DNA from: a virus
Taxonomy: Duplodnaviria; Caudoviricetes
Reading direction: 5' to 3' (one strand)
DNA length: 64,000 nucleotides
IMG/VR virus record: IMGVR_UViG_3300035670_000009
Coordinates: 1 to 64,000 of that record
Under the pieces are notes generated by a model, which was not told the origin of the DNA, searched no databases, and saw nothing but the letters and a program-made list of their open reading frames with translations. How positions within the stretch are numbered: position 1 is the stretch's first letter; every line of letters begins with the position of its first letter. The translations under genes and the position numbers were made by a program. Positions 4,839 to 19,030 of the stretch are shown here, piece after piece.

Positions 4839-5405
4839 TCAGCGTACCTTCTTAACGATGACCTGGTTCAGCTTGTGCAGCAGCATGAAGCGCGTAGCGT
4901 AGGCCTGAAGAAAGCCGTCGATGCCCAGGCCTGGATCGATCACGCCGACCTGGTCGTTGGGATGGTTCCAGCGGTAATCGTCGAAGATCATGACGCCGCC
5001 GTTGCGCAACAGCGGCCAGGCCAGTACGGCGTCGCTGAGCACTCCCGCGGCGTCGTGATCGCCGTCAACGTAGACCACGTCATAGTGCCGGTCTGAACTC
5101 GCCTGCGCCGCCAGCCAAACAAACGACCGGGATTTGACCTTCTCGACCCGCGCGGCATAGGGCGCCATGGTCGCGTCCCAGGCCTGCTCGATCTCCGGCT
5201 TCCACCAGCCGTCGATACAGGTCATCCGGTCTTCCGGCCGCAGAATGTTCTCCAGCACCCAGGCAGCGCCATGGCCGCTGTAAGAACCGATCTCCAGCCA
5301 GTGCGCCGGGCGATTCGTGGGAAGCAGCCCGGGAAGAATTTTCAACCAGGCGGCGGTGTTTGCGAAATGCCAGGTCGTGCCCGGCGCATCAACCGCGTCA
5401 GTCAT
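4839..5405 (-). CDS. Class I SAM-dependent methyltransferase (Methyltransf_24-like)
   Basis: LEIGSYSG, YVDGDH, LRNGGVMIFDDY motifs. Confidence 0.85.
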   Translation of the reverse strand: MTDAVDAPGTTWHFANTAAWLKILPGLLPTNRPAHWLEIGSYSGHGAAWVLENILRPEDRMTCIDGWWKPEIEQAWDATMAPYAARVEKVKSRSFVWLAAQASSDRHYDVVYVDGDHDAAGVLSDAVLAWPLLRNGGVMIFDDYRWNHPNDQVGVIDPGLGIDGFLQAYATRFMLLHKLNQVIVKKVR

Positions 5406-8375: not shown

Positions 8376-11144
8376 TTATGGCGATTTTTGCTCGTCTTGC
8401 TTGGCTGGCGTGCCGACCTCGCGCAGAATCTTGCGAAACGCCTCGTTGAGCTGCTCTTTGTTCTGAGAGAGCGTCTCTAGAACCTCGTCGCCGGTGCGCT
8501 GGCGGCGTTGGCCCAGAAGCCTGCCTAGGAAACCCGGCTCGTCACTGCCGGATAGATATCTTTGGACCTGGACGTTCTTGAGATCTTCCGGCAGTCCTGC
8601 GTGCGAGTCAAAGCGCAAACCGCGGCCGCGTGCCTGCTGCGTACGGGCCTCGTTCCAGTGCGGATCCAGAAGCTGTATGAGATTCGTTCCCTTGGTCGAG
8701 ATACCCTCGGCGCCAGCTGGGCCAATAAGCAGGGCTCTGAGCTTGCCCTCGTTGTACTCTTTCAGCGCCTTCTGCCTGGCCTCGGGTGAAATTCCGCCAT
8801 GGAAAATGCCGTGCGGAATACCAGCACGCGCGAGCGCCGCAGCGTATGGGTTCACGCCGGACTCTATGAAGTTCGAGTAGATCAGCGCCTTCTTGCGCTC
8901 GTCGCCCTCGAGAGCTTTCTGCAAATTTTGCATGGCTGTCTGGAGTTTCCCAGACTGGTCGAAGGCTTTCAGTGGATCCCGGTCGCCGCGGAAGCTCTGC
9001 GTGGACAGCGATACTTGCCGGAGGCCATTGAGAAAGCTGTTCATCTTGGCCAGCTCTTCGCGCGACATCGGAAACTCTTTGTCCATCTTCCAGAGAAACC
9101 CTGGCGGCACTTTCGTGCGAATAGCTTTTTGGATCTTCTGCTGCGCCTTGGAGAGCGGCGTTTTAATCACCTCTTCTTGGACGTCCACGCCCTCGGGAGT
9201 CTTGCTGGGGTGGTAATCAACCCGGCCCTCGAGCAGCTGGCGCAGCTCTTTTTCGTTTTTGACGTACGGCACTTCGCCCCACTGCGCGCCGCGAAGATAC
9301 GGAATAATTCCCGGAAACTTAGACTTGTAGCCGATGTAGCGCTCTTCAAACTGCTTGGGCGTGAGCTCTTTGCTGGTCAGCATCGAGATCAGGCTCGCCA
9401 TGTCAGTAGGCGAGTTCGTGATCGGCGTGCCAGATAGGAGCACAAGGCGCTTGGCTTTCTGCGCTGCCTCGCGGGCTGCGCGAGAAGCTGCGCTTTCAGG
9501 GTTACGTAATCTCTGCGCCTCGTCCATGACCAGCGTGTCTGGCTGCGACTGGAACTTTTTGCCCAGCGCGAGTCCGGAGTAAGAAAGCAGCTCAGGATTC
9601 GAGCCCTGCGTGAACTTGCCGAGTTCTTTCTGAAAGTTGCCGCGCAAACTAGCTGGCACAACGACGCCGTAATTACCGCCATGGATTTTCTGCGCGGCTT
9701 CAGCAGCGGCAATAGCCGAGAGAGACTTGCCTGAACCTAAGCCGTGATAGACCAACAAGCGCGGGTCTTCTCCAGAGACGCGATCTGATACGCGCTGCTG
9801 ATGCTCCTGCAGCTCGACGTCGGGCGAAAGGGCGGCGGTCTTAGGGCGGCCGAGCCAGTATTTGCGCACAGCATTAGCGCGCGTGTTCTCACCTGGCAAG
9901 GGCGGAATGAGCTCGCGGCCGCTCAGGATATCGCCGGACCCGCCAGCCTGTCTGCCGCCAGACAAAGGCAACTGATAGTCGATGAGTTGTCCGCCTGGTC
10001 CTAGATTATCAGGGCGAATGTCTTTAACGCCAAAATTTAATAGCGGTTGATAAACCTTACGCGCCCGCTGCACCGCTTCGTTTTCTAGCGCTTCTCGCCG
10101 TGCCCATGGGTACGGCATCCCGGTCGTTAGATCGATGAACGTATCGTCAAAGCCCTTGTCAGTAATTGCAGGCAGGCCCGGCGCAAAGGTTGTGATCCAG
10201 CCGGGCACTACTGGCTTGTCGCCAAACTCTTGAAACACGCCTTTAACGCCGCTGCCGCGCAAGTATTTAGCTGCAGTGCCGGGAAACTGCCGGGCTAGAA
10301 TGCGCGAACCTTCAAGACTGCGTGCGGCTTCAGTGCGCAACGCTTGCCGGGACAAATCATGCGCGGGTAATTTGCGCACAATTAAACCAGACGTGCCTTT
10401 AAGTTTGCCCGCCATAAGGTCAGCTTGGTTAAATGTGCCGCGGCCAAGACTCTTGATAAATCGCATACTGCCGTCGGGCATACTGGCCGTAATCTTGCCC
10501 AGTGCCGCTGGAGAAAGCTGCCCTGCTCGGGCCAGCTGCACCCATTTTGGCGCGGCTGTTTTAACGTACTGTGCCAGGTCTTCATCGTCGTACGCGGCTG
10601 ATTTAAAAAGCGCAGACACAGCCCGCCACACCTGGCCCGGTTCCGCTTCGGTGCGACGTTCGTGACAGGAAACCGGAAAAACATCCCCTAGCTGTGTCTG
10701 CGCCTGTTTCACTTTGTCTTGGACGTATCGTTGCATCGCCTTTCGCTGGTACTCGTCCAGCATTTCGGTGACGCTGTTGGCCTGTTCGGCAGCTACGAGT
10801 TTTGCAGGATCAACGCCCCAGTTGCGCAGCGCCCAGCCGCGGCGAGCTGTGGGCTTGGCCGCAAACGGGCCGCCGTGGCGGGCTTTGAAGCTCAGCCAGC
10901 GTTTGATCTGGCGCTCGTCCTCGCCGGGAATTCTGCGACCACCAGCATAGCGCTTGTACCACTGCGCCCAGCCTTTGGGGTCGTGCTCGCTGAGCCACTC
11001 GGGTTTCCATTCGCCCAGGCTGGCTAGCCTGGGTGCGGCGCCTCGATACAGCGAGTCATATACGCCGAGATTTTCCAACTGCTCTGGAGTGTAATCTGGC
11101 TGGAACTTCGCAGAGATGTCGGGTTGTTGCGGCACATCGCTCAT
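8376..11144 (-). CDS. Multidomain protein: conserved uncharacterised N-domain + kinase-like domain + SNF2-type SF2 helicase
   Basis: Helicase motifs HGLGSGKS, DEAQ, SGTPITN, DPHWN, QARGRGLR; kinase-like LGRGTF, IVRK, KDIRPDNL, LIDY; start at MSDVPQ overlaps the upstream stop (ATGA). Confidence 0.75.
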   Translation of the reverse strand: MSDVPQQPDISAKFQPDYTPEQLENLGVYDSLYRGAAPRLASLGEWKPEWLSEHDPKGWAQWYKRYAGGRRIPGEDERQIKRWLSFKARHGGPFAAKPTARRGWALRNWGVDPAKLVAAEQANSVTEMLDEYQRKAMQRYVQDKVKQAQTQLGDVFPVSCHERRTEAEPGQVWRAVSALFKSAAYDDEDLAQYVKTAAPKWVQLARAGQLSPAALGKITASMPDGSMRFIKSLGRGTFNQADLMAGKLKGTSGLIVRKLPAHDLSRQALRTEAARSLEGSRILARQFPGTAAKYLRGSGVKGVFQEFGDKPVVPGWITTFAPGLPAITDKGFDDTFIDLTTGMPYPWARREALENEAVQRARKVYQPLLNFGVKDIRPDNLGPGGQLIDYQLPLSGGRQAGGSGDILSGRELIPPLPGENTRANAVRKYWLGRPKTAALSPDVELQEHQQRVSDRVSGEDPRLLVYHGLGSGKSLSAIAAAEAAQKIHGGNYGVVVPASLRGNFQKELGKFTQGSNPELLSYSGLALGKKFQSQPDTLVMDEAQRLRNPESAASRAAREAAQKAKRLVLLSGTPITNSPTDMASLISMLTSKELTPKQFEERYIGYKSKFPGIIPYLRGAQWGEVPYVKNEKELRQLLEGRVDYHPSKTPEGVDVQEEVIKTPLSKAQQKIQKAIRTKVPPGFLWKMDKEFPMSREELAKMNSFLNGLRQVSLSTQSFRGDRDPLKAFDQSGKLQTAMQNLQKALEGDERKKALIYSNFIESGVNPYAAALARAGIPHGIFHGGISPEARQKALKEYNEGKLRALLIGPAGAEGISTKGTNLIQLLDPHWNEARTQQARGRGLRFDSHAGLPEDLKNVQVQRYLSGSDEPGFLGRLLGQRRQRTGDEVLETLSQNKEQLNEAFRKILREVGTPAKQDEQKSP
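11048..11120 (-). repeat. 73-bp direct repeat copy 1 (encodes DISAKFQPDYTPEQLENLGVYDSL)
   Basis: Matches 11737-11809 with 3 mismatches. Confidence 0.95.
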
Positions 11145-11824
11145 GTTTTTACCGCCAGGCATTGATTCTGATGAATATCTAACACCTGCGTATCTGGAAA
11201 GAACTCTGTAATAGCCCGGCGAATGCCAGGGCAACAGACGTCGTCCCAGTCGTCAAACAGAATCGCGCCTCCCGGCACAATCTTTGGCCAAAACAACGAA
11301 AGCGCGTGACTTGTTGAATCATAGTGATCCATATCCATGTGCACGAAACAAAACGCGGCATGCACGTCTTTCGCAGACACTGGCAGCCAGCCGGGATAAA
11401 AGCGACAATTTGGCTTGTCGTCGAGATATGCCCGCACGGCCTCCAACGACGTATCTCCAAAACTGCCCGTATGAAATTGATTGGGCATTGAATCGTCGCA
11501 GATAAACCCCTGAAACGAATCAAATAACAGCACGTCTTTTGTTTCAAATGCCGTGGCTAGAATTCGCGCAGCGCCGCCTTTGTACACGCCGCACTCAGCC
11601 ACATGCCCGGGCAAATTCTTAGCCGCAATGTCGCAACAGACTTTGGCCAATAGCCTACGCTTTTCACCCAATACAGAGTGGTCAGGTTTTGCGGCAAACG
11701 CGCGGGCGAGCAGCGCATCCGCAGCGGCGTAGGGGCACAGCGAGTCGTACACGCCGAGATTTTCCAACTGCTCTGGAGTGTAGTCTGGCTGGAACTTCGC
11801 AGAGATGTCAGACGGCTCGGGCAT
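11141..11824 (-). CDS. TylF/MycF (macrocin O-methyltransferase)-like sugar O-methyltransferase
   Basis: VAECGVYKGG, FDSFQGF, VHMDMDHYDS, GGAILFDDW motifs. Confidence 0.85.
   Translation of the reverse strand: MPEPSDISAKFQPDYTPEQLENLGVYDSLCPYAAADALLARAFAAKPDHSVLGEKRRLLAKVCCDIAAKNLPGHVAECGVYKGGAARILATAFETKDVLLFDSFQGFICDDSMPNQFHTGSFGDTSLEAVRAYLDDKPNCRFYPGWLPVSAKDVHAAFCFVHMDMDHYDSTSHALSLFWPKIVPGGAILFDDWDDVCCPGIRRAITEFFPDTQVLDIHQNQCLAVKT
11737..11809 (-). repeat. 73-bp direct repeat copy 2
   Basis: Matches 11048-11120 with 3 mismatches. Confidence 0.95.
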
Positions 11825-11897
11825 GCTGGCGTCCTTGCCATTGCCAATAGATATCTATGTACCGGGCCAGTTTACCAAATGCACTTACACCCGAGCT

Positions 11898-11945
11898 CTG
11901 ATAGCAAAAGGAAAGCGGAGCGCCGGGGCCGAAGCCCCGGGCGCT
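11898..11945 (-). terminator. Intrinsic terminator, cassette family copy 1
   Basis: GC hairpin with C(UUCG)G loop followed by UUUCCUUUUGCUAUCAG. Confidence 0.75.
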
Positions 11946-11969
11946 GTTGCTTGCCTTGTGCGGGCTTTA

Positions 11970-12224
11970 TCAGCTCGCAAGCGCGGCGAGGCCCGCCTGG
12001 GCGATCACCGCGTTGAGCGCGGCGCCGAACTCCTCGACGGCGGCGACGATCTCCTCCTCGGAGAACTTGCCGACGTTGGCCTGGATCGCCTCGAGCTTGG
12101 CGCGCGCCTTGGTCAGTCGCCGCGTGGCGCGCACCCGCTTGCCGAGCTGGATGCCCTCGTGTACGGCGCAGCCGCCGATCGCCACCACCGCCACAGCCGC
12201 CACCGCCTTGATGAGCATGTTCAT
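11970..12224 (-). CDS. Small protein with N-terminal hydrophobic helix (cassette gene)
   Basis: Own promoter, leader and terminator; AVAAVAVVAIGG segment. Confidence 0.7.
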   Translation of the reverse strand: MNMLIKAVAAVAVVAIGGCAVHEGIQLGKRVRATRRLTKARAKLEAIQANVGKFSEEEIVAAVEEFGAALNAVIAQAGLAALAS

Positions 12225-12308
12225 CGTATCAGCCCTTCAGGTATTCTAGCCTGCAACGCTCACCCGGCGTTGCTGCAGCAAGTCCTGACTACCTAATCAG
12301 GGCTCACT
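12225..12308 (-). promoter_or_regulatory. Structured 5' leader, subtype B copy 1 (CGGGUGA loop)
   Basis: Similar to 18381-18465; stem CAACGC-CGGGTGA-GCGTTG. Confidence 0.6.
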
Positions 12309-12310
12309 AG

Positions 12311-12339
12311 ATATGCCCGGCTGTGCGCTTTTCTTTAGC
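12311..12339 (-). promoter_or_regulatory. Phage promoter GCTAAA-N16-GGCATAT
   Basis: One of 7 exact-spacing copies, all upstream of minus-strand units. Confidence 0.8.
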
Positions 12340-12341
12340 TA

Positions 12342-12893
12342 TCAGCGCGCAGCTTGTTGCGCAAACTGCTGCGCCGCCCCGGTGTAATTAAACGGCTTGG
12401 CCGACGACGTGATGCCCGGCAACAAATCCCACATCGGCTTCTGATAGCCGACTCGTGCAAGCTGCGCTGTTTGCCCAGCGTTCAACGCAACGGGCGCGCC
12501 GCCGCGTAAAACCTGCACGCCGTTGACCAGAGTCCGACTCGGCTGCGCTACGCCATTGATAGTCTGCGTGATGTGATTGAGCTGCGGCGTGTGAATCATG
12601 GCGTTGTGCATCGTGTGCCCGCCGCCCAAGAGCGCCAGGCCCGTGACAGCTGGCTTGACGACGCGGTCCATAGCAAGCTGTTTGAGCTTTGTGCCCATAG
12701 GCGTGACAGGCGCCCGGCCGGTGACCATCTGCGTGGCCTTTTGCATGAGCGTAGGCTTTGGCGCAGCCACGGCAAGCCGTTTGAAAGCAGGCGCCAGAGA
12801 ATGACCCAGCGCATCGAGCAGAGCTTGCTTTTCGCGCGGGCTTGTTTGCGCGCCCAGAACGTAGCCGAACTCGTAAGCTGACAGCGCGCTCAT
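12342..12893 (-). CDS. Hypothetical virion-type protein (EKQA linker)
   Basis: ORF coupled to upstream gene (ATGA overlap); basic, Ala/Gln-rich. Confidence 0.6.
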   Translation of the reverse strand: MSALSAYEFGYVLGAQTSPREKQALLDALGHSLAPAFKRLAVAAPKPTLMQKATQMVTGRAPVTPMGTKLKQLAMDRVVKPAVTGLALLGGGHTMHNAMIHTPQLNHITQTINGVAQPSRTLVNGVQVLRGGAPVALNAGQTAQLARVGYQKPMWDLLPGITSSAKPFNYTGAAQQFAQQAAR

Positions 12894-15799
12894 TTTTTGC
12901 TCTTCTCTTTTTTCTGCCTGTCGGCCTTCGACTTCGATGCGGACTCTGACTCGTCGCGGTCAGAGTTGCTGTCTTCCGGCTTGTCGTCAGCGTACGTTCC
13001 CTTGCGCCGGGCTGCTTGCAACAGGCCATAAGCCTTGCCGCCGACCAGGCCAGCCAGTGCGCCATTCGGGCCGCCCAGCATTTTGCCCGCGTAGCTGCCG
13101 TACCCAGCAGGCAAAACTTTCTGCCGGTCGTGCAGAATCTCGTTGAGCTTGTTGGGCTTATCGCCGAGCGCCTTACGCAACGCCCGCTCAGAGCGCTGAT
13201 TTGCATTGGCCTCGTGAAGCAACGACACGAGCGGAATCTTGCCCGCCACGCTGTACAGATCTCGCTGGAGGCCCGTGCCCTGACGGCGCAACCAGGTAAG
13301 CAACTTGTTCTTGCCGGGCTCGTACTCGGGGACTTTCTTTGCGTTAAAGTCTAGCGCGTGGCCCAGCTCGTGTGAAAGCGCCGCAGGATTATTGCCGTAA
13401 AGATATGTGCTGTCGGAGAACGGGTTATAAGCGTTGCCGCGCGTCAGGGCCGTCGCGAGATAGCTCAGCGGCAACGAAGCGGTGCCAATTGCTTTGCCTG
13501 CAACGCTCGTACGGGGATTGGTCATCGTGCGCTTGATTTCCCGAAAGAAGCGCGGGCCGCCAAGATACACCTGATGATTACTCAAAGCTTGCGGGTCAGC
13601 CTGCGCCATGGTTTGCGCCAGCGCTTTCATTTTCTGCGCGCGAATGTCTTCTGGCGCAGCCTCGGGGTCAGTCACGCCCGCTGCGCCAGTCCAATCGGTT
13701 GGATTCACATGCAGCTGCGGCGAGAGAATGAGATTGCTGGGAAAGCCGCCGAGGTGCCCAAGCGTACTGCTCAGCGCCATGGCAGGCAGACCGCCGCGGG
13801 ACACGTCGATAGATATCTTTTCAGCCTGCGCGGCGCCGCGTGCAATAGCGAACAAGTCACACGCTGACTTTGGACGAATGCCCTGCAGCTGGCCCCACGT
13901 TGTCGCCTTCGTTGGCACATCGCCAAAGAACGACACAAACTCGCCCGTGCCGTACGACGAGGGAATACGCCCGGCAGCTTGGCCCACGCGTGTATAGCGC
14001 TGCATGGCTTTGCTCATTGCTGCCTGCGCGGCTTCAGTGTCGCCGAACCTGCGGAACATGTGAATGCCGTCGGGCATGCGCAGGCGCGTCGTGGGCGGCG
14101 CGATGGGGCGCGGCGTTCGGTTCCACAGAAACTCTGCCAGCTCGCTTAGCCTGGCCCCTGGTACCGCCTCGCGACGTGCAGCAGACAGCGCGGGCAATAC
14201 AGACGGATGCGCCGTTGACATACTCAGGACTTTTTTAGCCGCTGTTTGCGCTGCGCCAGCTACGCGAGAAGGCAACGCGGGCGCAGCTTCGCGGCCAAAG
14301 ATACCCGCCATCGTGCCCATGCGGCTGCTGAGATTTCGCGTCAAGTCGGTCATGAAGTTGGCAGACTTTTCACTCTGCGCAAGACCAGCTAGGACAGCCA
14401 GGTCTGTTACAGAACCGCATTTGCAGTTCCACTTACGCAAAGATTTGTTAATGCGCGAGTCGGGGTCTGATTTCGTTTCACTTCCCGTGTTCACGCGTTT
14501 CATGCCGCACATGCGCGCACAGAACGAATTTTGGCGCTTCTTACGCTCGCCGCTGGGGTTGCTCTCAGTGACGGGCGGCTTGAGATTCCCGCCGTGCGCT
14601 TTCTCGTAGCTCTTGCGGCCTTTTTCATTCAGGCCGCCTTCGGGGTTCTTGCCTTCGCTGCGCTGCCATGCGGGACTCGCTGCGCCTTGTTTCGCAAGCG
14701 CCGCCTCGATGAGCTGGCGCATCTCGGGCTTGAGCTGGCCCATGTGCGAGAACTCGAGTCTATTTGGCTGCTCCATGACGTGCATGCCGCGAATAGCCTT
14801 GAGCTTGCGCTTGTACTTGGGCACGTCTTCGCGCAGCACATAGGGATCCCGATCGAAGATTCGGCGCAGCCAGCCAGGCGGCTTGTCTACAACGTCGACG
14901 CCGTGCGTGTGCCCGTAGCGATATGCGTTGCCCACGTCGACGAGACCTTCGGCGCCGTACCAGCCGGGCATCTTTTCATCATTGCCGCCCAGAATGCTCG
15001 TAATCCCAGCGGTCTTTGAGCTATCAGGCGAGTTCTTCTGGCCGAACGCCGCGTTGCCATTGAGCTGGCCCTTGGCGCCCAGTGGCCCAAACGCCTGGAT
15101 GGGATTGTGCTGCGGATTCGAGCCGCCGCCGACCGGGCTGTTACTGGGTTGCGGCATACCTTGCTGCGCTGTTTGGGCGCCCTGCGCAGCTGACGCATTC
15201 GCCGGGGCGTTAACCGTACCCATGGGGGGCGTAATGTACGGAGACGGAATCGAGTACCTCTTCAACCCCATGTTTTGCGGGACAAAACGCGGCTCTCGAC
15301 CCTCGGCCAACGCTTGCGCAGTTTCCATTTCATTGCGAAAAGGCTTCGCCAAAACAGTGGAAATCTTTGCAAGCAAACTTTGCGCCGCCTCTTTATCGCA
15401 CTCTTCACGCTCACGCGATTCAGACTGCGAAGACTCGGCGTTGTCTAACTTTTGCTCGCCCTGCTCACGTTCTTGTCCGGCATACGTGGGTTTGTCGCTG
15501 TGGGGAATGTCCACTTTGACCAACGAATCCATAGCCGTTTTAGCGTTGGCGCTACCTTCTGTATTGCATATTAAAAAGGCACCGTTGCCCGAAAATTGTG
15601 CAAGCCCGGCCGAAAGAGCCGCGAGAGCGGCAGCTTTTTCTTTGCTATTGGCGCTGGGCTTTTTCTGGTCGTGGTCTTTCTTATCGGCGTACATCGGCAG
15701 ACCCTTGTTGGATTCGGGGTACTCATGCGCCCAACGTTTGGCGATGTCGGGATGCGCTGCCCATAGAAAACGGCGCTGCTTCTCAGACTGAAATGGCAT
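12890..15799 (-). CDS. 969-aa multi-module protein with C-terminal HExxH metallopeptidase-like motif
   Basis: Modules PFQSEKQRRFLWAAHP, AWQRSEGKNPEGGLN...FCARM...RKWNC and SHELGH...HEANAN, separated by KxA-type linkers. Confidence 0.65.
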   Translation of the reverse strand: MPFQSEKQRRFLWAAHPDIAKRWAHEYPESNKGLPMYADKKDHDQKKPSANSKEKAAALAALSAGLAQFSGNGAFLICNTEGSANAKTAMDSLVKVDIPHSDKPTYAGQEREQGEQKLDNAESSQSESREREECDKEAAQSLLAKISTVLAKPFRNEMETAQALAEGREPRFVPQNMGLKRYSIPSPYITPPMGTVNAPANASAAQGAQTAQQGMPQPSNSPVGGGSNPQHNPIQAFGPLGAKGQLNGNAAFGQKNSPDSSKTAGITSILGGNDEKMPGWYGAEGLVDVGNAYRYGHTHGVDVVDKPPGWLRRIFDRDPYVLREDVPKYKRKLKAIRGMHVMEQPNRLEFSHMGQLKPEMRQLIEAALAKQGAASPAWQRSEGKNPEGGLNEKGRKSYEKAHGGNLKPPVTESNPSGERKKRQNSFCARMCGMKRVNTGSETKSDPDSRINKSLRKWNCKCGSVTDLAVLAGLAQSEKSANFMTDLTRNLSSRMGTMAGIFGREAAPALPSRVAGAAQTAAKKVLSMSTAHPSVLPALSAARREAVPGARLSELAEFLWNRTPRPIAPPTTRLRMPDGIHMFRRFGDTEAAQAAMSKAMQRYTRVGQAAGRIPSSYGTGEFVSFFGDVPTKATTWGQLQGIRPKSACDLFAIARGAAQAEKISIDVSRGGLPAMALSSTLGHLGGFPSNLILSPQLHVNPTDWTGAAGVTDPEAAPEDIRAQKMKALAQTMAQADPQALSNHQVYLGGPRFFREIKRTMTNPRTSVAGKAIGTASLPLSYLATALTRGNAYNPFSDSTYLYGNNPAALSHELGHALDFNAKKVPEYEPGKNKLLTWLRRQGTGLQRDLYSVAGKIPLVSLLHEANANQRSERALRKALGDKPNKLNEILHDRQKVLPAGYGSYAGKMLGGPNGALAGLVGGKAYGLLQAARRKGTYADDKPEDSNSDRDESESASKSKADRQKKEKSKK

Positions 15800-15878
15800 G
15801 GCGCGCTTTCTGCGTTAAAGATCGTTGTATCTTCGCAAAACGCGTGCGCTACGGCAACGGCCAGAGTGTACGAGAGCG

Positions 15879-15930
15879 CTGATAGCAAAAGGAAAGCGGG
15901 AGGCCCGGGGACCGTAGCCCCCGGGCGCTC
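15879..15930 (-). terminator. Intrinsic terminator, cassette family copy 2
   Basis: Hairpin with C(UACG)G loop plus UUUCCUUUUGCUAUCAG. Confidence 0.75.
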
Positions 15931-15975
15931 CACGTCTTTCCTCGCGATGAGGAGCAGCCGCGTGACCGCATGGCA

Positions 15976-16431
15976 CTAGGCCTGGGCCAGACCGCCCTGC
16001 GCGCAGATCTGCTGCACGTCGGCCGGGACCTGCTGGGCCTGCGCCTCGGGGGCGTAGAAGCCCTGCATGACGCCGCGGCTGAGCGGGTTGCTGCTGACCG
16101 CGGTGCCCGCCTTGGTCGTGACGTCGAGGACGGCCCGGGCGCTGCGGCCGATGCCGTAGCCCGTGACCTCGACGCCCTTGACCGCCGCGTCCGCCGTCAC
16201 CGTCGCGGCCGTGATGGCCGTGTCGGCGATGAGACAACCGGCGTCGAGCACCGCGCCGGTGGCGACCACCGCGCAGCCCGTGGTGAAGTTGCCGACCTTC
16301 GCGACGCCCTCCACCACCTTCTTGTCGCCACCGGAGCGGCGCAGGAGGTAGGACGCGACGGCGACGGTGCCGACGGCGATGGCGACCTTGGTGGCGGACT
16401 TGGCGAACAGGTTGCTGATGACGTGGAGCAT
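15976..16431 (-). CDS. Small Ala/Val/Gly-rich protein with hydrophobic segment (cassette gene)
   Basis: ORF between leader and terminator; VAIAVGTVAVASYLL. Confidence 0.7.
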   Translation of the reverse strand: MLHVISNLFAKSATKVAIAVGTVAVASYLLRRSGGDKKVVEGVAKVGNFTTGCAVVATGAVLDAGCLIADTAITAATVTADAAVKGVEVTGYGIGRSARAVLDVTTKAGTAVSSNPLSRGVMQGFYAPEAQAQQVPADVQQICAQGGLAQA

Positions 16432-16540
16432 CTGATTCCTCGAGTGTTAAGCTCGAGGTCCCAGTGGAGACAGATGGGTTTTCTAAGCCCAGGTTTCGGC
16501 CTTGTGGATCACCCGTCCACAACAGCTATATCTGCTCCAT
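16432..16540 (-). promoter_or_regulatory. Structured 5' leader, subtype A copy 1
   Basis: Near-identical to 17703-17812 with compensatory changes. Confidence 0.7.
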
Positions 16541-16543
16541 CTC

Positions 16544-16572
16544 ATATGCCGGGTTTTTGGCTGTTATTTAGC
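16544..16572 (-). promoter_or_regulatory. Phage promoter GCTAAA-N16-GGCATAT
   Basis: Exact consensus and spacing. Confidence 0.8.
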
Positions 16573-16633
16573 TCGCCCCAGATCATATGCGTAATACACC
16601 GTTTTGCGCACGTTTACGCATATGCGCGGGGCG

Positions 16634-16688
16634 CTGATAGCAAAAGAAAACCGCACGCCAGCGGCCCTGCAGACCGCCAGCGTGGTTC
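16634..16688 (-). terminator. Intrinsic terminator, cassette family copy 3
   Basis: Hairpin plus UUUUCUUUUGCUAUCAG. Confidence 0.65.
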
Positions 16689-16948
16689 TCTTCGTTGGAG
16701 TTTCACCAACACCCCGTTTCTTTCCGGTTTCCCGGTTCAGCCTTTCGGCAACCCCGCGAGGGGCGAGTGAGTTTCTCGACCGTAAGCACCTGCTAAGACG
16801 GCAGGCCCTTACGGATTTGGTCGGCCTCAGTCGACCTATACGGCGCTCGTCTTCCCGAAGCCAGGGAAAACTCGGGCTACTCACATGCCGTCACATATGA
16901 GTAACCGTAGCGCCGCTTGGACTATCAGTGCAATATGATAATCCAGGT
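16640..16948 (-). ncRNA. Putative ~310-nt structured non-coding RNA
   Basis: Bounded by consensus promoter and terminator; serial hairpins (CC-GAAA-GG, CCGG-GAAA-CCGG, GGUCGAC/GCCGACC, CCUGC/GCAGG); no credible ORF. Confidence 0.55.
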
Positions 16949-16954
16949 CATTTA

Positions 16955-16983
16955 ATATGCCGGAGTTTTGGCCGGTATTTAGC
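16955..16983 (-). promoter_or_regulatory. Phage promoter GCTAAA-N16-GGCATAT
   Basis: Exact consensus and spacing. Confidence 0.8.
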
Positions 16984-16998
16984 TCGGCGTTCAGCGCG

Positions 16999-17053
16999 CT
17001 AATAGCAAAAGGAAACCGGGCGGCCGGGACCCGAAGGCCCCGGCGCACCCGGT
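16999..17053 (-). terminator. Intrinsic terminator, cassette family copy 4
   Basis: C(UUCG)G hairpin; 17002-17053 is identical to 17849-17900. Confidence 0.8.
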
Positions 17054-17099
17054 GTGAGTGCTGTATTTGCTAACGCGCCCAGCAAGGCGCGGTCGGAGT

Positions 17100-17702
17100 T
17101 CAGTCGCAGGCCGCGGCGGTTGCGGCCATGTCCGGCGCCACTTCGGCGCCAAACATGCACCCCGCCGCATCGAGGGCCTGCATGAGGCTCTCGATGTTCA
17201 GGAACTCTGACCTGGTATCGGTCCCGGTCTTCCACGCGAGCTCGCAGCTCGCGACGTCCCAGGCCTTGTAGCCGACCTGGTTGAACGTCAACTTCACTTC
17301 CACGGACCTGTTTTTGGTCCACGTGCCCTCCCACCAGAGCATTAGCTCGGTGGGCGCGACGAGGCAGCAGCCGTCCTCGTCAAAGTCGGGCTCGCAGCTC
17401 GTGCCGCCCGACGCCACGAACCCTCCGCGGGGCGGGTCGAAGACGCCGTCCTCCGCCTCCGCGGCGGAGCGGAGGATCCGGCGGGCCTCGGCCGCGATCA
17501 CGGCCGGGTTCCAGGTACCCGTCTCGGGCAGCTGGATTGCGCGGATTAACGGGTCGAGCCGCTGCCCGATCAGCCCGGCCCAGTAGGCCAAGAGAACGGG
17601 CAGCGCCCGCCGGACGTTGTCCGGCACCTCGGAGGCGTATGCCTCCGAGGCGAACCAGCCCAGCTTACCCTCTCTGTACTGGTCCGGAGCGAAGTTGAAC
17701 AT
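17100..17702 (-). CDS. Hypothetical protein (cassette gene)
   Basis: Start reassigned to MFNFAP at 17702 because the leader repeat ends at the same offset as in the 16431 gene. Confidence 0.7.
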   Translation of the reverse strand: MFNFAPDQYREGKLGWFASEAYASEVPDNVRRALPVLLAYWAGLIGQRLDPLIRAIQLPETGTWNPAVIAAEARRILRSAAEAEDGVFDPPRGGFVASGGTSCEPDFDEDGCCLVAPTELMLWWEGTWTKNRSVEVKLTFNQVGYKAWDVASCELAWKTGTDTRSEFLNIESLMQALDAAGCMFGAEVAPDMAATAAACD

Positions 17703-17812
17703 TTGATTCCTCGGGCGGTAAGCCCGAGGCTCCAGTGGAGTCAGCATGGGTTTTCTAAACCCAGGTTTCAGCTGCGCGGATCACCCGTCCGCAACAGCTA
17801 TAGCTGCTCCAC
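17703..17812 (-). promoter_or_regulatory. Structured 5' leader, subtype A copy 2
   Basis: Near-identical to 16432-16540. Confidence 0.7.
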
Positions 17813-17815
17813 GTT

Positions 17816-17844
17816 ATATGCCCGAATATGCCCAGGTATTTAGC
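17816..17844 (-). promoter_or_regulatory. Phage promoter GCTAAA-N16-GGCATAT
   Basis: Exact consensus; spacer contains a second GGGCATAT. Confidence 0.8.
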
Positions 17845-17845
17845 A

Positions 17846-17900
17846 CTGATAGCAAAAGGAAACCGGGCGGCCGGGACCCGAAGGCCCCGGCGCACCCGGT
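17846..17900 (-). terminator. Intrinsic terminator, cassette family copy 5
   Basis: 52 bp identical to copy 4. Confidence 0.8.
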
Positions 17901-17930
17901 TTGCATCCGACGAGAACAGAATTGATTGCG

Positions 17931-18380
17931 TCAATCGACGAGGCACCCGCCCCGGTTGTTGACGCTCCATTTCCAGCCCGCCCGGGCCACGCGGGCCAGC
18001 GCCATTTGATGCTCCACAGCCGCGTCCCAGGCTGCGTAGCCCAGGTCCGCGATAGGGACCTCAAGCGCAGCCGTGGTCTCGTCGTGGGCAGCGCATAGCG
18101 CCGCCCAGCGCTCCTCTTGTTCCTCGTAAGAGCCGACGACTTGGTCCATTTCGACGGCCCAGGCGGCCGCCTTGGTCTCCTGGTCGGAGACCGGAGCCTG
18201 GTCTAACCAGGCCCACGGCATGACCTCCGGATGGAAGTCAGCCGGGTCCTCGGCGTCTTCGAGGGGCTGAAGCCAGAACGTCCCCGTCCGGTCGACCGGC
18301 AGGACTTTGCCCCGCTCGATGACGCTGAGGATCGTGAGCACCAGGCACGCCGCCAAAGGAACCAGAACGAAACCAGCCAT
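17931..18380 (-). CDS. Small protein with N-terminal TM helix and acidic body (cassette gene)
   Basis: AGGAGG RBS; MAGFVLVPLAACLVLTILSVI. Confidence 0.75.
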   Translation of the reverse strand: MAGFVLVPLAACLVLTILSVIERGKVLPVDRTGTFWLQPLEDAEDPADFHPEVMPWAWLDQAPVSDQETKAAAWAVEMDQVVGSYEEQEERWAALCAAHDETTAALEVPIADLGYAAWDAAVEHQMALARVARAGWKWSVNNRGGCLVD

Positions 18381-18465
18381 GATAGTGGCCTCCTAGGTAT
18401 TCACAGCTTGCATCGCTCACCCGGCAACGCTGCAGCAAGACCCGCATACCTAGACGGGACTCATT
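18381..18465 (-). promoter_or_regulatory. Structured 5' leader, subtype B copy 2
   Basis: Similar to 12225-12308; GTTGC-CGGGTGA-GCGAT stem. Confidence 0.6.
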
Positions 18466-18467
18466 AC

Positions 18468-18496
18468 ATATGCCCGGGAAACGCGCTGGCTTTAGC
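18468..18496 (-). promoter_or_regulatory. Phage promoter GCTAAA-N16-GGCATAT
   Basis: Exact consensus and spacing. Confidence 0.8.
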
Positions 18497-18516
18497 CGAA
18501 TAGATATCTATTGACT

Positions 18517-18608
18517 GACTGCCTTGCTGAGAGCAGTCGGACTGCGCTCGTGAGAGCAGTCGGACTGCCTTGCTGAGAGCAGTCGGACTGCGCTCGTGAG
18601 AGCAGTCT
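18517..18608. repeat. 4 x 23-bp tandem repeat of alternating palindromic units
   Basis: gactgccttgctgagagcagtcg and gactgcgctcgtgagagcagtcg alternate ABAB; each unit has GACTGC...GCAGTC arms. Confidence 0.95.
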
Positions 18609-18971
18609 GCGTTGCTGCGCGGGCATGTACCAGATTCCAGAAAATGGAAAATGCGCCGTAAGTGTTTTATACGCATGGACTTACGGCACATATTTTTTGC
18701 GAAACACGTAAGTCTTTTGCTGCCCACATGTTGCGCAGTAAATGCTTTTGTTTTGTCAAGCTGTTTGGCTGTAAAAACCACTGCTCGTGTATCCGTAGCG
18801 CGGCCTGTTTTATTGTTTTGCCCAGCAATACCGCAAAAACAGTAATTTTTTGGATACACGGGTATGTATGAAATAGCTGAAGATTGTGTACACAATGCGC
18901 AGTTTGGCAGGCTTCGCAAGTTCCGCAGTTCGCGAATCGCGAATCTTCGTTCCTGCTGCCCCAAAAACCGC

Positions 18972-19030
18972 CAATAGCAAAAAGAAACCGGGCGGCTGGA
19001 GCCTCGACGGCCCCAAACACGCCCGGCGTT
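18972..19030 (-). terminator. Intrinsic terminator, cassette family copy 6 (ends the upstream operon)
   Basis: CCGGGCG stem plus UUUCUUUUUGCUAUUG. Confidence 0.65.

Follow-up and report, generated by a model that had tools for sequence, protein, structure and literature searches.

Morons of lambdoid and other tailed phages, described by Juhala, Hendrix and colleagues, are promoter-gene-terminator insertions between conserved genes, variable in their presence and atypical in composition. In the host-takeover module of the Bacillus phage SPO1, and likewise in the early regions of the T5 and T4 genomes, small genes are densely packed, each with strong promoters and terminators of a repeated type, and many of the products are small or membrane proteins; exchange of cassettes at the flanks is not known for the SPO1 module. 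T4-type phages have promoter-early stem-loop (PeSL) motifs, in which strong promoters are combined with terminator stem-loops beside ORFans (orphan open reading frames, ORFs) in hyperplastic regions, where indels between close relatives occur at the motifs and cassette mini-circles are formed (Arbiol et al. 2010, PMC2839356; Comeau et al. 2014, PMC4122927). Here we describe an array of small transcription-unit-like cassettes at 11.9-19.0 kb of IMG/VR virus record IMGVR_UViG_3300035670_000009 (Duplodnaviria; Caudoviricetes), the complete genome of an uncultivated phage, 203,910 bp long with direct terminal repeats and 57.7% GC. The window that was analyzed is the first 64 kb of this record, and almost all genes lie on the minus strand.

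The region carries, on the minus strand, five promoter-like motifs, six predicted terminators, two leader families, four small ORFs and one ORF-less RNA unit. The original prediction, made from the letters of the window, was that five units have the same parts in the same order on this strand, and all five are present where it had placed them. In minus-strand order, the region starts with a terminator (T0) and an ORF-less spacer of ~470 nt, followed by P-B1, leader B1, a gene for a 149-aa protein and T1, and by P-A1, leader A1, a gene for a 200-aa protein and T2. The ORF-less unit comes next (P-R, a body of ~270 nt and T3), and then P-A2, leader A2, a gene for a 151-aa protein and T4. Beyond a 969-aa DUF6321 gene and a 183-aa gene lies a lone unit consisting of P-B2, leader B2, a gene for an 84-aa protein and T5. 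The prediction that each terminator abuts the next promoter held at two junctions (gaps of 1 and 15 nt) and failed at the third, where the gap is 61 nt. For comparison, we used relatives found through homologs of the 969-aa neighbor, all of which are metagenomic assemblies.

We consider it probable that this is a hyperplastic region of autonomous transcription units whose regulatory repeats double as homology anchors for general recombination. Each unit would consist of a clade-specific promoter (GCTAAA, a 17-nt spacer, GCATAT and N3-RTG), a structured leader, a payload and an intrinsic terminator with a conserved tail. The leaders belong to two families, with a CGGGUGA hairpin in both and the ribosome-binding site predicted to be hidden in a helix. 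The payload of a unit would be a structured RNA or a small ORFan protein, in many cases one with a membrane anchor. Lying in the same orientation, the regulatory repeats could act as homology anchors, such that recombination between them would delete, insert or replace whole payloads, with an incoming payload bringing ready-made expression signals. We infer from sequence that the motifs act as promoter and terminator and that a protein binds the CGGGUGA loop.

The two-part motif GCTAAAK-N15-GGCATAT is present in five exact minus-strand copies in the region. These are P-B1 (18468..18496, GCTAAAG-N15-GGCATAT), which is 100% identical in the relative L016, P-A1 (17816..17844), which is separated from the T1 tail by 1 nt, P-R in the ORF-less unit (16955..16983), P-A2 (16544..16572) and P-B2 of the lone unit (12311..12339), which shares bases with the stop codon of the preceding gene. 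With the flanking positions included, the consensus becomes GGCATAT-N3-RTG. The motif is in statistical excess: if ≤2 mismatches are allowed but GGCATAT must be intact, nine copies are found across the 204 kb, each of them on the minus strand, whereas 20 shuffles yielded 0-4 matches each even with 2 mismatches permitted. Copies without the rest of a unit are seen elsewhere in the genome at 27598, 38679 and 151063. Read as GCTAAA, a 17-nt spacer and GCATAT, the motif would have the geometry of the sigma-70 family with a -10-like element and an unusual -35. The CATAT part and the 17-nt spacing are sigma-70-like and the GCTAAA part is not TTGACA-like. The motif has what we take to be only a partial resemblance to the Caulobacter- or Sinorhizobium-type consensus and to the T4 MotA box, a likeness on which we do not rely. 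The phage encodes a 270-aa sigma-70-family protein (genome 132272-133084, minus strand) that scores above the Pfam cut-off for region 3 and matches PHROG 351, and an RNA polymerase beta-like ORF of ~1459 aa (genome ~168.7-173 kb, minus strand); either could be the reader of the clade-specific promoter. Searches for a T7-type RNA polymerase and for Sigma70_r2 gave zero matches, the sigma-70-family protein having been recovered through region 3.

The six predicted terminators are GC-rich hairpins of -23 to -39 kcal/mol, each followed by a U-rich tract, with a tail of the form TTTCCTTTTGCTAT / UUUCCUUUU. In all six the hairpin runs directly into the U-rich tract, as in intrinsic (Rho-independent) terminators, and three were also found by a generic scan. 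The tail TTTCYTTTTGCTAT occurs in six minus-strand copies with 0-1 mismatch (at 11901, 15882, 16637, 17002, 17849 and 18974); at ≤2 mismatches there are nine matches in the window vs a mean of 0.55 in shuffles, and there is a single further weak copy elsewhere in the genome. T0 (18966..19030, -31.8 kcal/mol, hairpin plus tail TTTCTTTTTGCTAT) closes the upstream operon and is 100% identical in L016. T1 (17843..17903, -39.1 kcal/mol) and T2 (16996..17056, -37.3 kcal/mol) are 95% identical over 61 nt, have an exact 52-bp run in common and are spaced 847 nt apart. The others are T3 (16634..16690, -29.8 kcal/mol), T4 (15876..15936, -33.8 kcal/mol) and T5 (11893..11945, -22.9 kcal/mol). The -35 region of P-B2, CTGATAGCTAAAGAAAAGC, is a near-inverted copy of the terminator tail (window 12325-12345 vs 11895-11915), and the lone cassette is therefore bracketed by inverted repeats. 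In the relative L009 (4582-4600 vs 5040-5058), the CTGATAGCTAAAGAAAAGC-type box is kept, but a second promoter 22 nt downstream is used.

Leaders of type A (16432-16543 and 17703-17815) and type B (12225-12310 and 18381-18467) form two-copy repeat families with 76-80% identity. The two families have a seven-base CGGGUGA loop in common on stems of different sequence, and across all 204 kb of the genome only the four leaders have such a loop on a stem of ≥6 bp. The stem-CGGGUGA-stem hairpin lies at 18410-18430 in leader B1, where the Shine-Dalgarno sequence is also within a helix, at 12253-12273 in leader B2, at 16502-16522 in leader A2, which is 100% identical in L016, and at 17775-17793 in leader A1 (z = -6.4), where a second hairpin sequesters the Shine-Dalgarno sequence. 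Orthologous leaders contain three more CGGGUGA hairpins with other complementary stems (L003:8399-8419, L003:9056-9076 and L009:1117-1137), and the distant phage L030 has the loop variant CGAGUGA. The consensus fold has compensatory pairs both in the CGGGUGA stem and in a second helix containing the Shine-Dalgarno sequence. We infer that the hairpin is a candidate protein-binding or antitermination site and that the leader may additionally exert translational control. The leaders had no Rfam match at gathering or permissive thresholds.

The expression signals are conserved across a phage clade. Measured by the 969-aa protein, L016 is 99.2% identical to the window, L001-L003 and L009/L010 are 77-80% identical, and L004, L005-L007, L011 and L012 are 43-49% identical. 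The promoter motif with its spacing and the arrangement of terminator tail followed by promoter are kept in all of these relatives, including those at only 43-49%. Another 12 IMG/VR contigs, with lengths of up to 205 kb, also carry the combined terminator-promoter pattern, and in most of them a locus has 2-6 same-strand promoter copies (≤1 mismatch). Since the signals are kept in the relatives and in these 12 contigs, they are a property of the phage clade and not a local accident. IMG/VR searches with the 969-aa protein and with the exact leader-A pattern yielded zero matches, as did the leader-A pattern in JGI metagenome contigs. Among GenBank phages, a DNA search gave zero matches and a protein search matched only the DUF6321 domain of the neighboring gene, mostly in cyanophages.

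The prediction of exchangeable cassettes would have been refuted by fixed content and order; instead, content differs among relatives and strains, with most of the differences at the shared flanks. Over 8.2 kb, L016 and the window have 93% identity, distributed as a mosaic. Its promoters, A leaders, T0, T3, RNA body and 969-aa gene have 97-100% nucleotide identity, while identity in the ORFs is 57% for the 149-aa protein, 66% for the 151-aa protein and ~80% for the C-terminal half of the 200-aa ORF. The fall in identity occurs inside leader B1 in one unit and after ~13 codons in the other, and recovery occurs at the first base of the terminator hairpin; at T4, for example, identity is back at 97-100%. 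Only 1.5% of sites differ in the flanking 2.9-kb gene vs 34-43% in the replaced ORFs, synonymous sites included, and the L016 payload ORFs therefore did not diverge in place. The breaks in identity lie at the leader and terminator edges. The alleles of the 151-aa and 149-aa proteins are 62% and 51% identical in amino acid sequence between the window and L016 vs 66% and 54% between the window and L003, and are thus no closer in the first pair than in the second, although the backbones are 99% and 80% identical, respectively. The same replacement is present at 15940-16291 in X5 and X6, contigs from two further studies, which argues against an assembly chimera.

Whole units are also gained and lost. 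Contig X7, from a fourth study, joins position 17053 to 17928, skipping 874 nt and carrying 22 diverged letters instead, and the 200-aa unit is gone. This deletion fits the 847-nt T1-T2 spacing, with its junction between the terminators that have the exact 52-bp repeat. L003 is without both the 200-aa unit and the RNA unit, leaving only the 149-aa and 151-aa orthologs. The spacer of its second promoter matches P-R of the window and the leader that follows matches leader A2, a hybrid pattern that would be expected if two promoters had crossed over. One site, which follows the DUF6321 gene on the minus strand, encodes the predicted 84-aa lipoprotein in the window, an unrelated acidic 81-aa protein with another leader in L003 and a third unrelated protein of 92 aa in L009. 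These unrelated genes sit between a conserved promoter and a conserved terminator, with junctions just after the former and just before the latter. L016 has kept promoter and terminator at this site around a 289-nt deletion, and X7 has no unit there.

The payload proteins have no mutual blastp similarity at E≤1, in agreement with the prediction that they are unrelated, and none of the four has a Pfam or PHROG match. A hydrophobic N-terminal helix had been claimed for three of the four; it is clear in the 84-aa and 149-aa proteins and borderline in the 151-aa protein. The 149-aa protein (17931..18380) has a predicted N-terminal membrane anchor and belongs to no known family. The 200-aa protein (17100..17702) is a soluble Cys-rich ORFan with a single homolog cluster among 5.8 billion clusters, and its whole unit is absent in X7 and L003/L001. 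The 151-aa protein (15976..16431) is Ala/Gly/Val-rich and has family members in this phage group only; searched as a profile, the family returned just nine representative clusters, and the two contexts checked, both metagenomic contigs and one of them 200-kb and phage-like, gave no functional lead. The 84-aa protein of the lone unit (11970..12224) is a predicted lipoprotein with a lipobox-like signal (Cys19) and a helical tail. ESM Atlas look-ups for three payloads returned models with pLDDT 0.45-0.56 and no usable matches. Given the membrane anchor of the 149-aa protein, the lipobox-like signal of the 84-aa protein and what is generally known of small membrane proteins in phages, our guess is that the payloads serve host interaction or superinfection exclusion. 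The early, host-takeover or exclusion roles given to them in the prediction are likewise a guess.

The payloads differ in base composition from the rest of the genome. Their GC content at third codon positions (GC3) is 0.81 (149-aa), 0.90 (200-aa), 0.97 (151-aa) and 0.94 (84-aa) vs 0.665 +/- 0.077 for 156 long minus-strand ORFs of the genome, and three of the four sense ORFs with GC3≥0.85 in the 204 kb are payloads. Relatives mostly repeat this contrast, most strongly the closer ones. In L030, a distant 200-kb phage, the 151-aa family has a GC3 of ~0.95 and is found inside the same promoter, leader-A-like start and terminator tail, with different neighbors. Other X4 contigs have short partial matches to the high-GC payloads that continue into unlike sequence. 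The bias could be caused by a separate high-GC gene pool, by selection on the payload genes or by GC-biased repair at a recombination hot spot. More speculatively, the shared parts may do more than direct expression: a promoter read by the phage's own sigma factor, a CGGGUGA hairpin and hidden ribosome-binding site bound by a phage RNA-binding or antitermination factor, and the conserved tail would form a docking platform, by which the clade would capture genes and RNAs from a high-GC pool under one phage-controlled switch; we regard this as rather unlikely.

Several observations weigh against recombination between shared flanks as the source of the diversity, or against the units being autonomous. 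A simple sigma-70 scan flagged none of the motif sites, whose -35 part is unlike TTGACA, and the autonomy of the units, like the activity of their promoters and terminators, is a prediction from sequence. High GC3 is stable in the 151-aa family across lineages and need not mean a recent foreign origin. Chimeric metagenomic assembly could mimic a mosaic, though the haplotype recurs in three data sets. Only assembled contigs were compared, and mini-circles or other recombination intermediates were not observed. Two losses occurred away from the shared flanks. The 183-aa gene (window 12342-12893) is bounded by an 8-nt direct repeat, GCGCGCTG, indicating a microhomology-type loss; in L016, X5 and X6, which lack it, the 969-aa gene leads directly into the promoter of the lone unit. 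The 84-aa payload of L016 was lost by the internal 289-nt deletion described above.

These two losses, the second of which left an empty promoter-terminator shell, also fit an alternative in which the units are ordinary small accessory genes, separately transcribed, that undergo random illegitimate indels and fast divergence, with flanks that have no special role in recombination. Functional constraint alone could likewise keep promoters and terminators more conserved than ORFs. However, such a history does not account for the deletion of one unit in X7 exactly between duplicated terminators, drift in situ cannot give a 34-43% difference in the L016 ORFs beside 1.5% in the flanking 2.9-kb gene, and a single site holds three unrelated genes whose junctions adjoin the promoter on one side and the terminator on the other. 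We therefore find this alternative unlikely.

An integron-like site-specific system, in which the attachment site recognized by a recombinase would be either the conserved tail, GCTATCAG, or the promoter box, is highly improbable. It would explain why a conserved tail without an obvious role in termination follows the U-run, and why the lone unit is bracketed by near-inverted tail copies (CTGATAGCTAAAGAAAAGC upstream and the terminator tail downstream). However, the complete genome has no match to tyrosine integrases (Phage_integrase) or serine recombinases (Resolvase), the breakpoints in L016 lie inside leaders and ORF starts and not at one fixed site, and the distance from tail to promoter varies (1, 15 and 61 nt). 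The absence of an integrase and of any attC pattern had been predicted, and we likewise found no integrase, resolvase or attC-like element in the genome. Payload divergence through targeted hypermutation or strong diversifying selection, by a diversity-generating retroelement or similar, is hardly credible: the confinement of divergence to the ORFs and the 63 non-synonymous vs 25 synonymous codons in the 151-aa gene would fit, but the genome has no reverse transcriptase (RVT_1) match, the substitutions are of all types and not adenine-specific, and this process cannot yield indels or wholly unrelated payloads. The absence of the enzymes, together with the variable junctions, leads us to discard both the integron-like and the retroelement readings.

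The payload of one unit appears to be an RNA. The ORF-less structured RNA candidate (16685..16954, ~300 nt) is missing from L003 and has 98.5% identity in L016. Its unit measures 311 nt from the promoter to the tail of the terminator, with a predicted folding energy of -154 kcal/mol (z = -8 vs shuffles), and it has no credible ORF and no Rfam match at gathering or permissive thresholds. The phage encodes CsrA, but the RNA does not resemble a CsrA sponge of the CsrB/RsmZ type: it is not GGA-enriched, with approximately four GGA, mostly outside loops, vs approximately five by chance (estimated by hand from the fold). A sixth unit of the same design lies outside the window (genome 106985-107563, minus strand), ~2 kb upstream of the phage csrA. 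It combines an exact copy of the promoter motif with a short leader and a terminator whose tail is TTTTCCTTTGCTAT. By eye, its product is an acidic protein of ~125 aa with its ATG near 107483. Other features encoded in the genome are one tmRNA and two tRNAs, and there is a RecA-family match.

Repeats of other kinds are present in and around the array. The ORF-less spacer (18497..18965) is AT-richer (GC 0.46) and contains four 23-nt palindromic repeats (window 18517-18608) directly upstream of P-B1. Two of these are missing in X5/X6 and L016, so that copy number varies among strains, and L003 has other repeats at that place. A genome-wide palindrome, ATAGATATCTAT, is found beside units at conserved positions, with one copy just upstream of the P-B1 -35 box (window 18499-18510) and another between T5 and the next gene (11847-11858). 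In relatives it is located at L003:8320-8331 and 13127-13138, L009:1032-1043, and L016:9156-9167 and 15046-15057. This palindrome could represent a second class of promoter or a site for a regulator. The prediction had placed the lone 84-aa unit among virion-type genes; the genes around it code for a DUF6321 protein, a methyltransferase (TylF) and a helicase (SNF2). The 969-aa DUF6321 protein (window 12890-15799, minus strand) has, by eye, a HELGH (HExxH-type) motif near its C-terminal third, which suggests a zinc-peptidase module. The TylF gene is bracketed by an 86-bp direct repeat with 90% identity (window 11035-11120 and 11724-11809), and it is missing in X7 and L001 with one repeat copy left; L003 ends before the site. 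This indel is clean and repeat-bounded and is without promoter or terminator flanks.

Strain variants of this region catch several stages of exchange: unit deletion, allele swap, payload replacement and an empty shell. The clade-specific promoter/terminator pair offers a means of locating hot spots of accessory genes in phage genomes from metagenomes, and the region provides further leads in a candidate cis-regulatory hairpin and a candidate phage non-coding RNA that travels as a cassette. ORFan payloads with predicted membrane anchors or a lipoprotein signal are the kind of protein used in superinfection exclusion and host manipulation, which makes the region a good place to seek new phage-host interaction genes.

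The array most closely resembles the PeSL motifs. It has repeated terminator/promoter composites, with five predicted promoters and six predicted terminators in 7 kb that are adjacent in the 16-18 kb run, and these flank small ORFans in a hyperplastic region that differs among close relatives. As in the PeSL model, each cassette has a promoter and a terminator, indels and replacements occur at the motifs (with the two exceptions of microhomology and internal deletion), and general homologous recombination is invoked without a dedicated recombinase. There are also clear differences. The carrier has no match to the T4 capsid (Gp23) or portal families in its complete genome, where among 14 control genomes the Gp23 model matched none and the portal model one, below cut-off. 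Its promoter has a non-sigma-70 -35 element, GCTAAA, whereas PeSL promoters follow the host sigma-70 early consensus. The terminator precedes the promoter and is not interleaved with it, and it has a conserved tail. The leaders are long, conserved and structured with a CGGGUGA-loop hairpin, and one cassette encodes RNA. Finally, mini-circles are known in PeSL phages, and none were observed in the assembled contigs here.

Other known systems share fewer of these properties. Similar to a moron, the 84-aa unit lies between the DUF6321/183-aa and the TylF/SNF2 genes and is missing from X7, reduced to an empty shell in L016 and exchanged for other genes in L003 and L009, and the payload GC3 is unlike the rest of the phage. 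However, classical morons are one-off insertions without common flanks, while the flanks here are a conserved family reused for many payloads, and expression from a prophage is not applicable here. The SPO1, T5 and T4 arrays also consist of small genes that each have a repeated promoter and terminator, but the promoter here is not of host consensus. An integron is likewise an array of exchangeable single-gene units; here, the units would be self-expressing, integrase and attC are absent, and no upstream promoter is common to the units. The principle of exchange is already known from the PeSL model in T4-type coliphages and vibriophages; what is new is its occurrence in an unrelated, uncultivated jumbo-phage clade.

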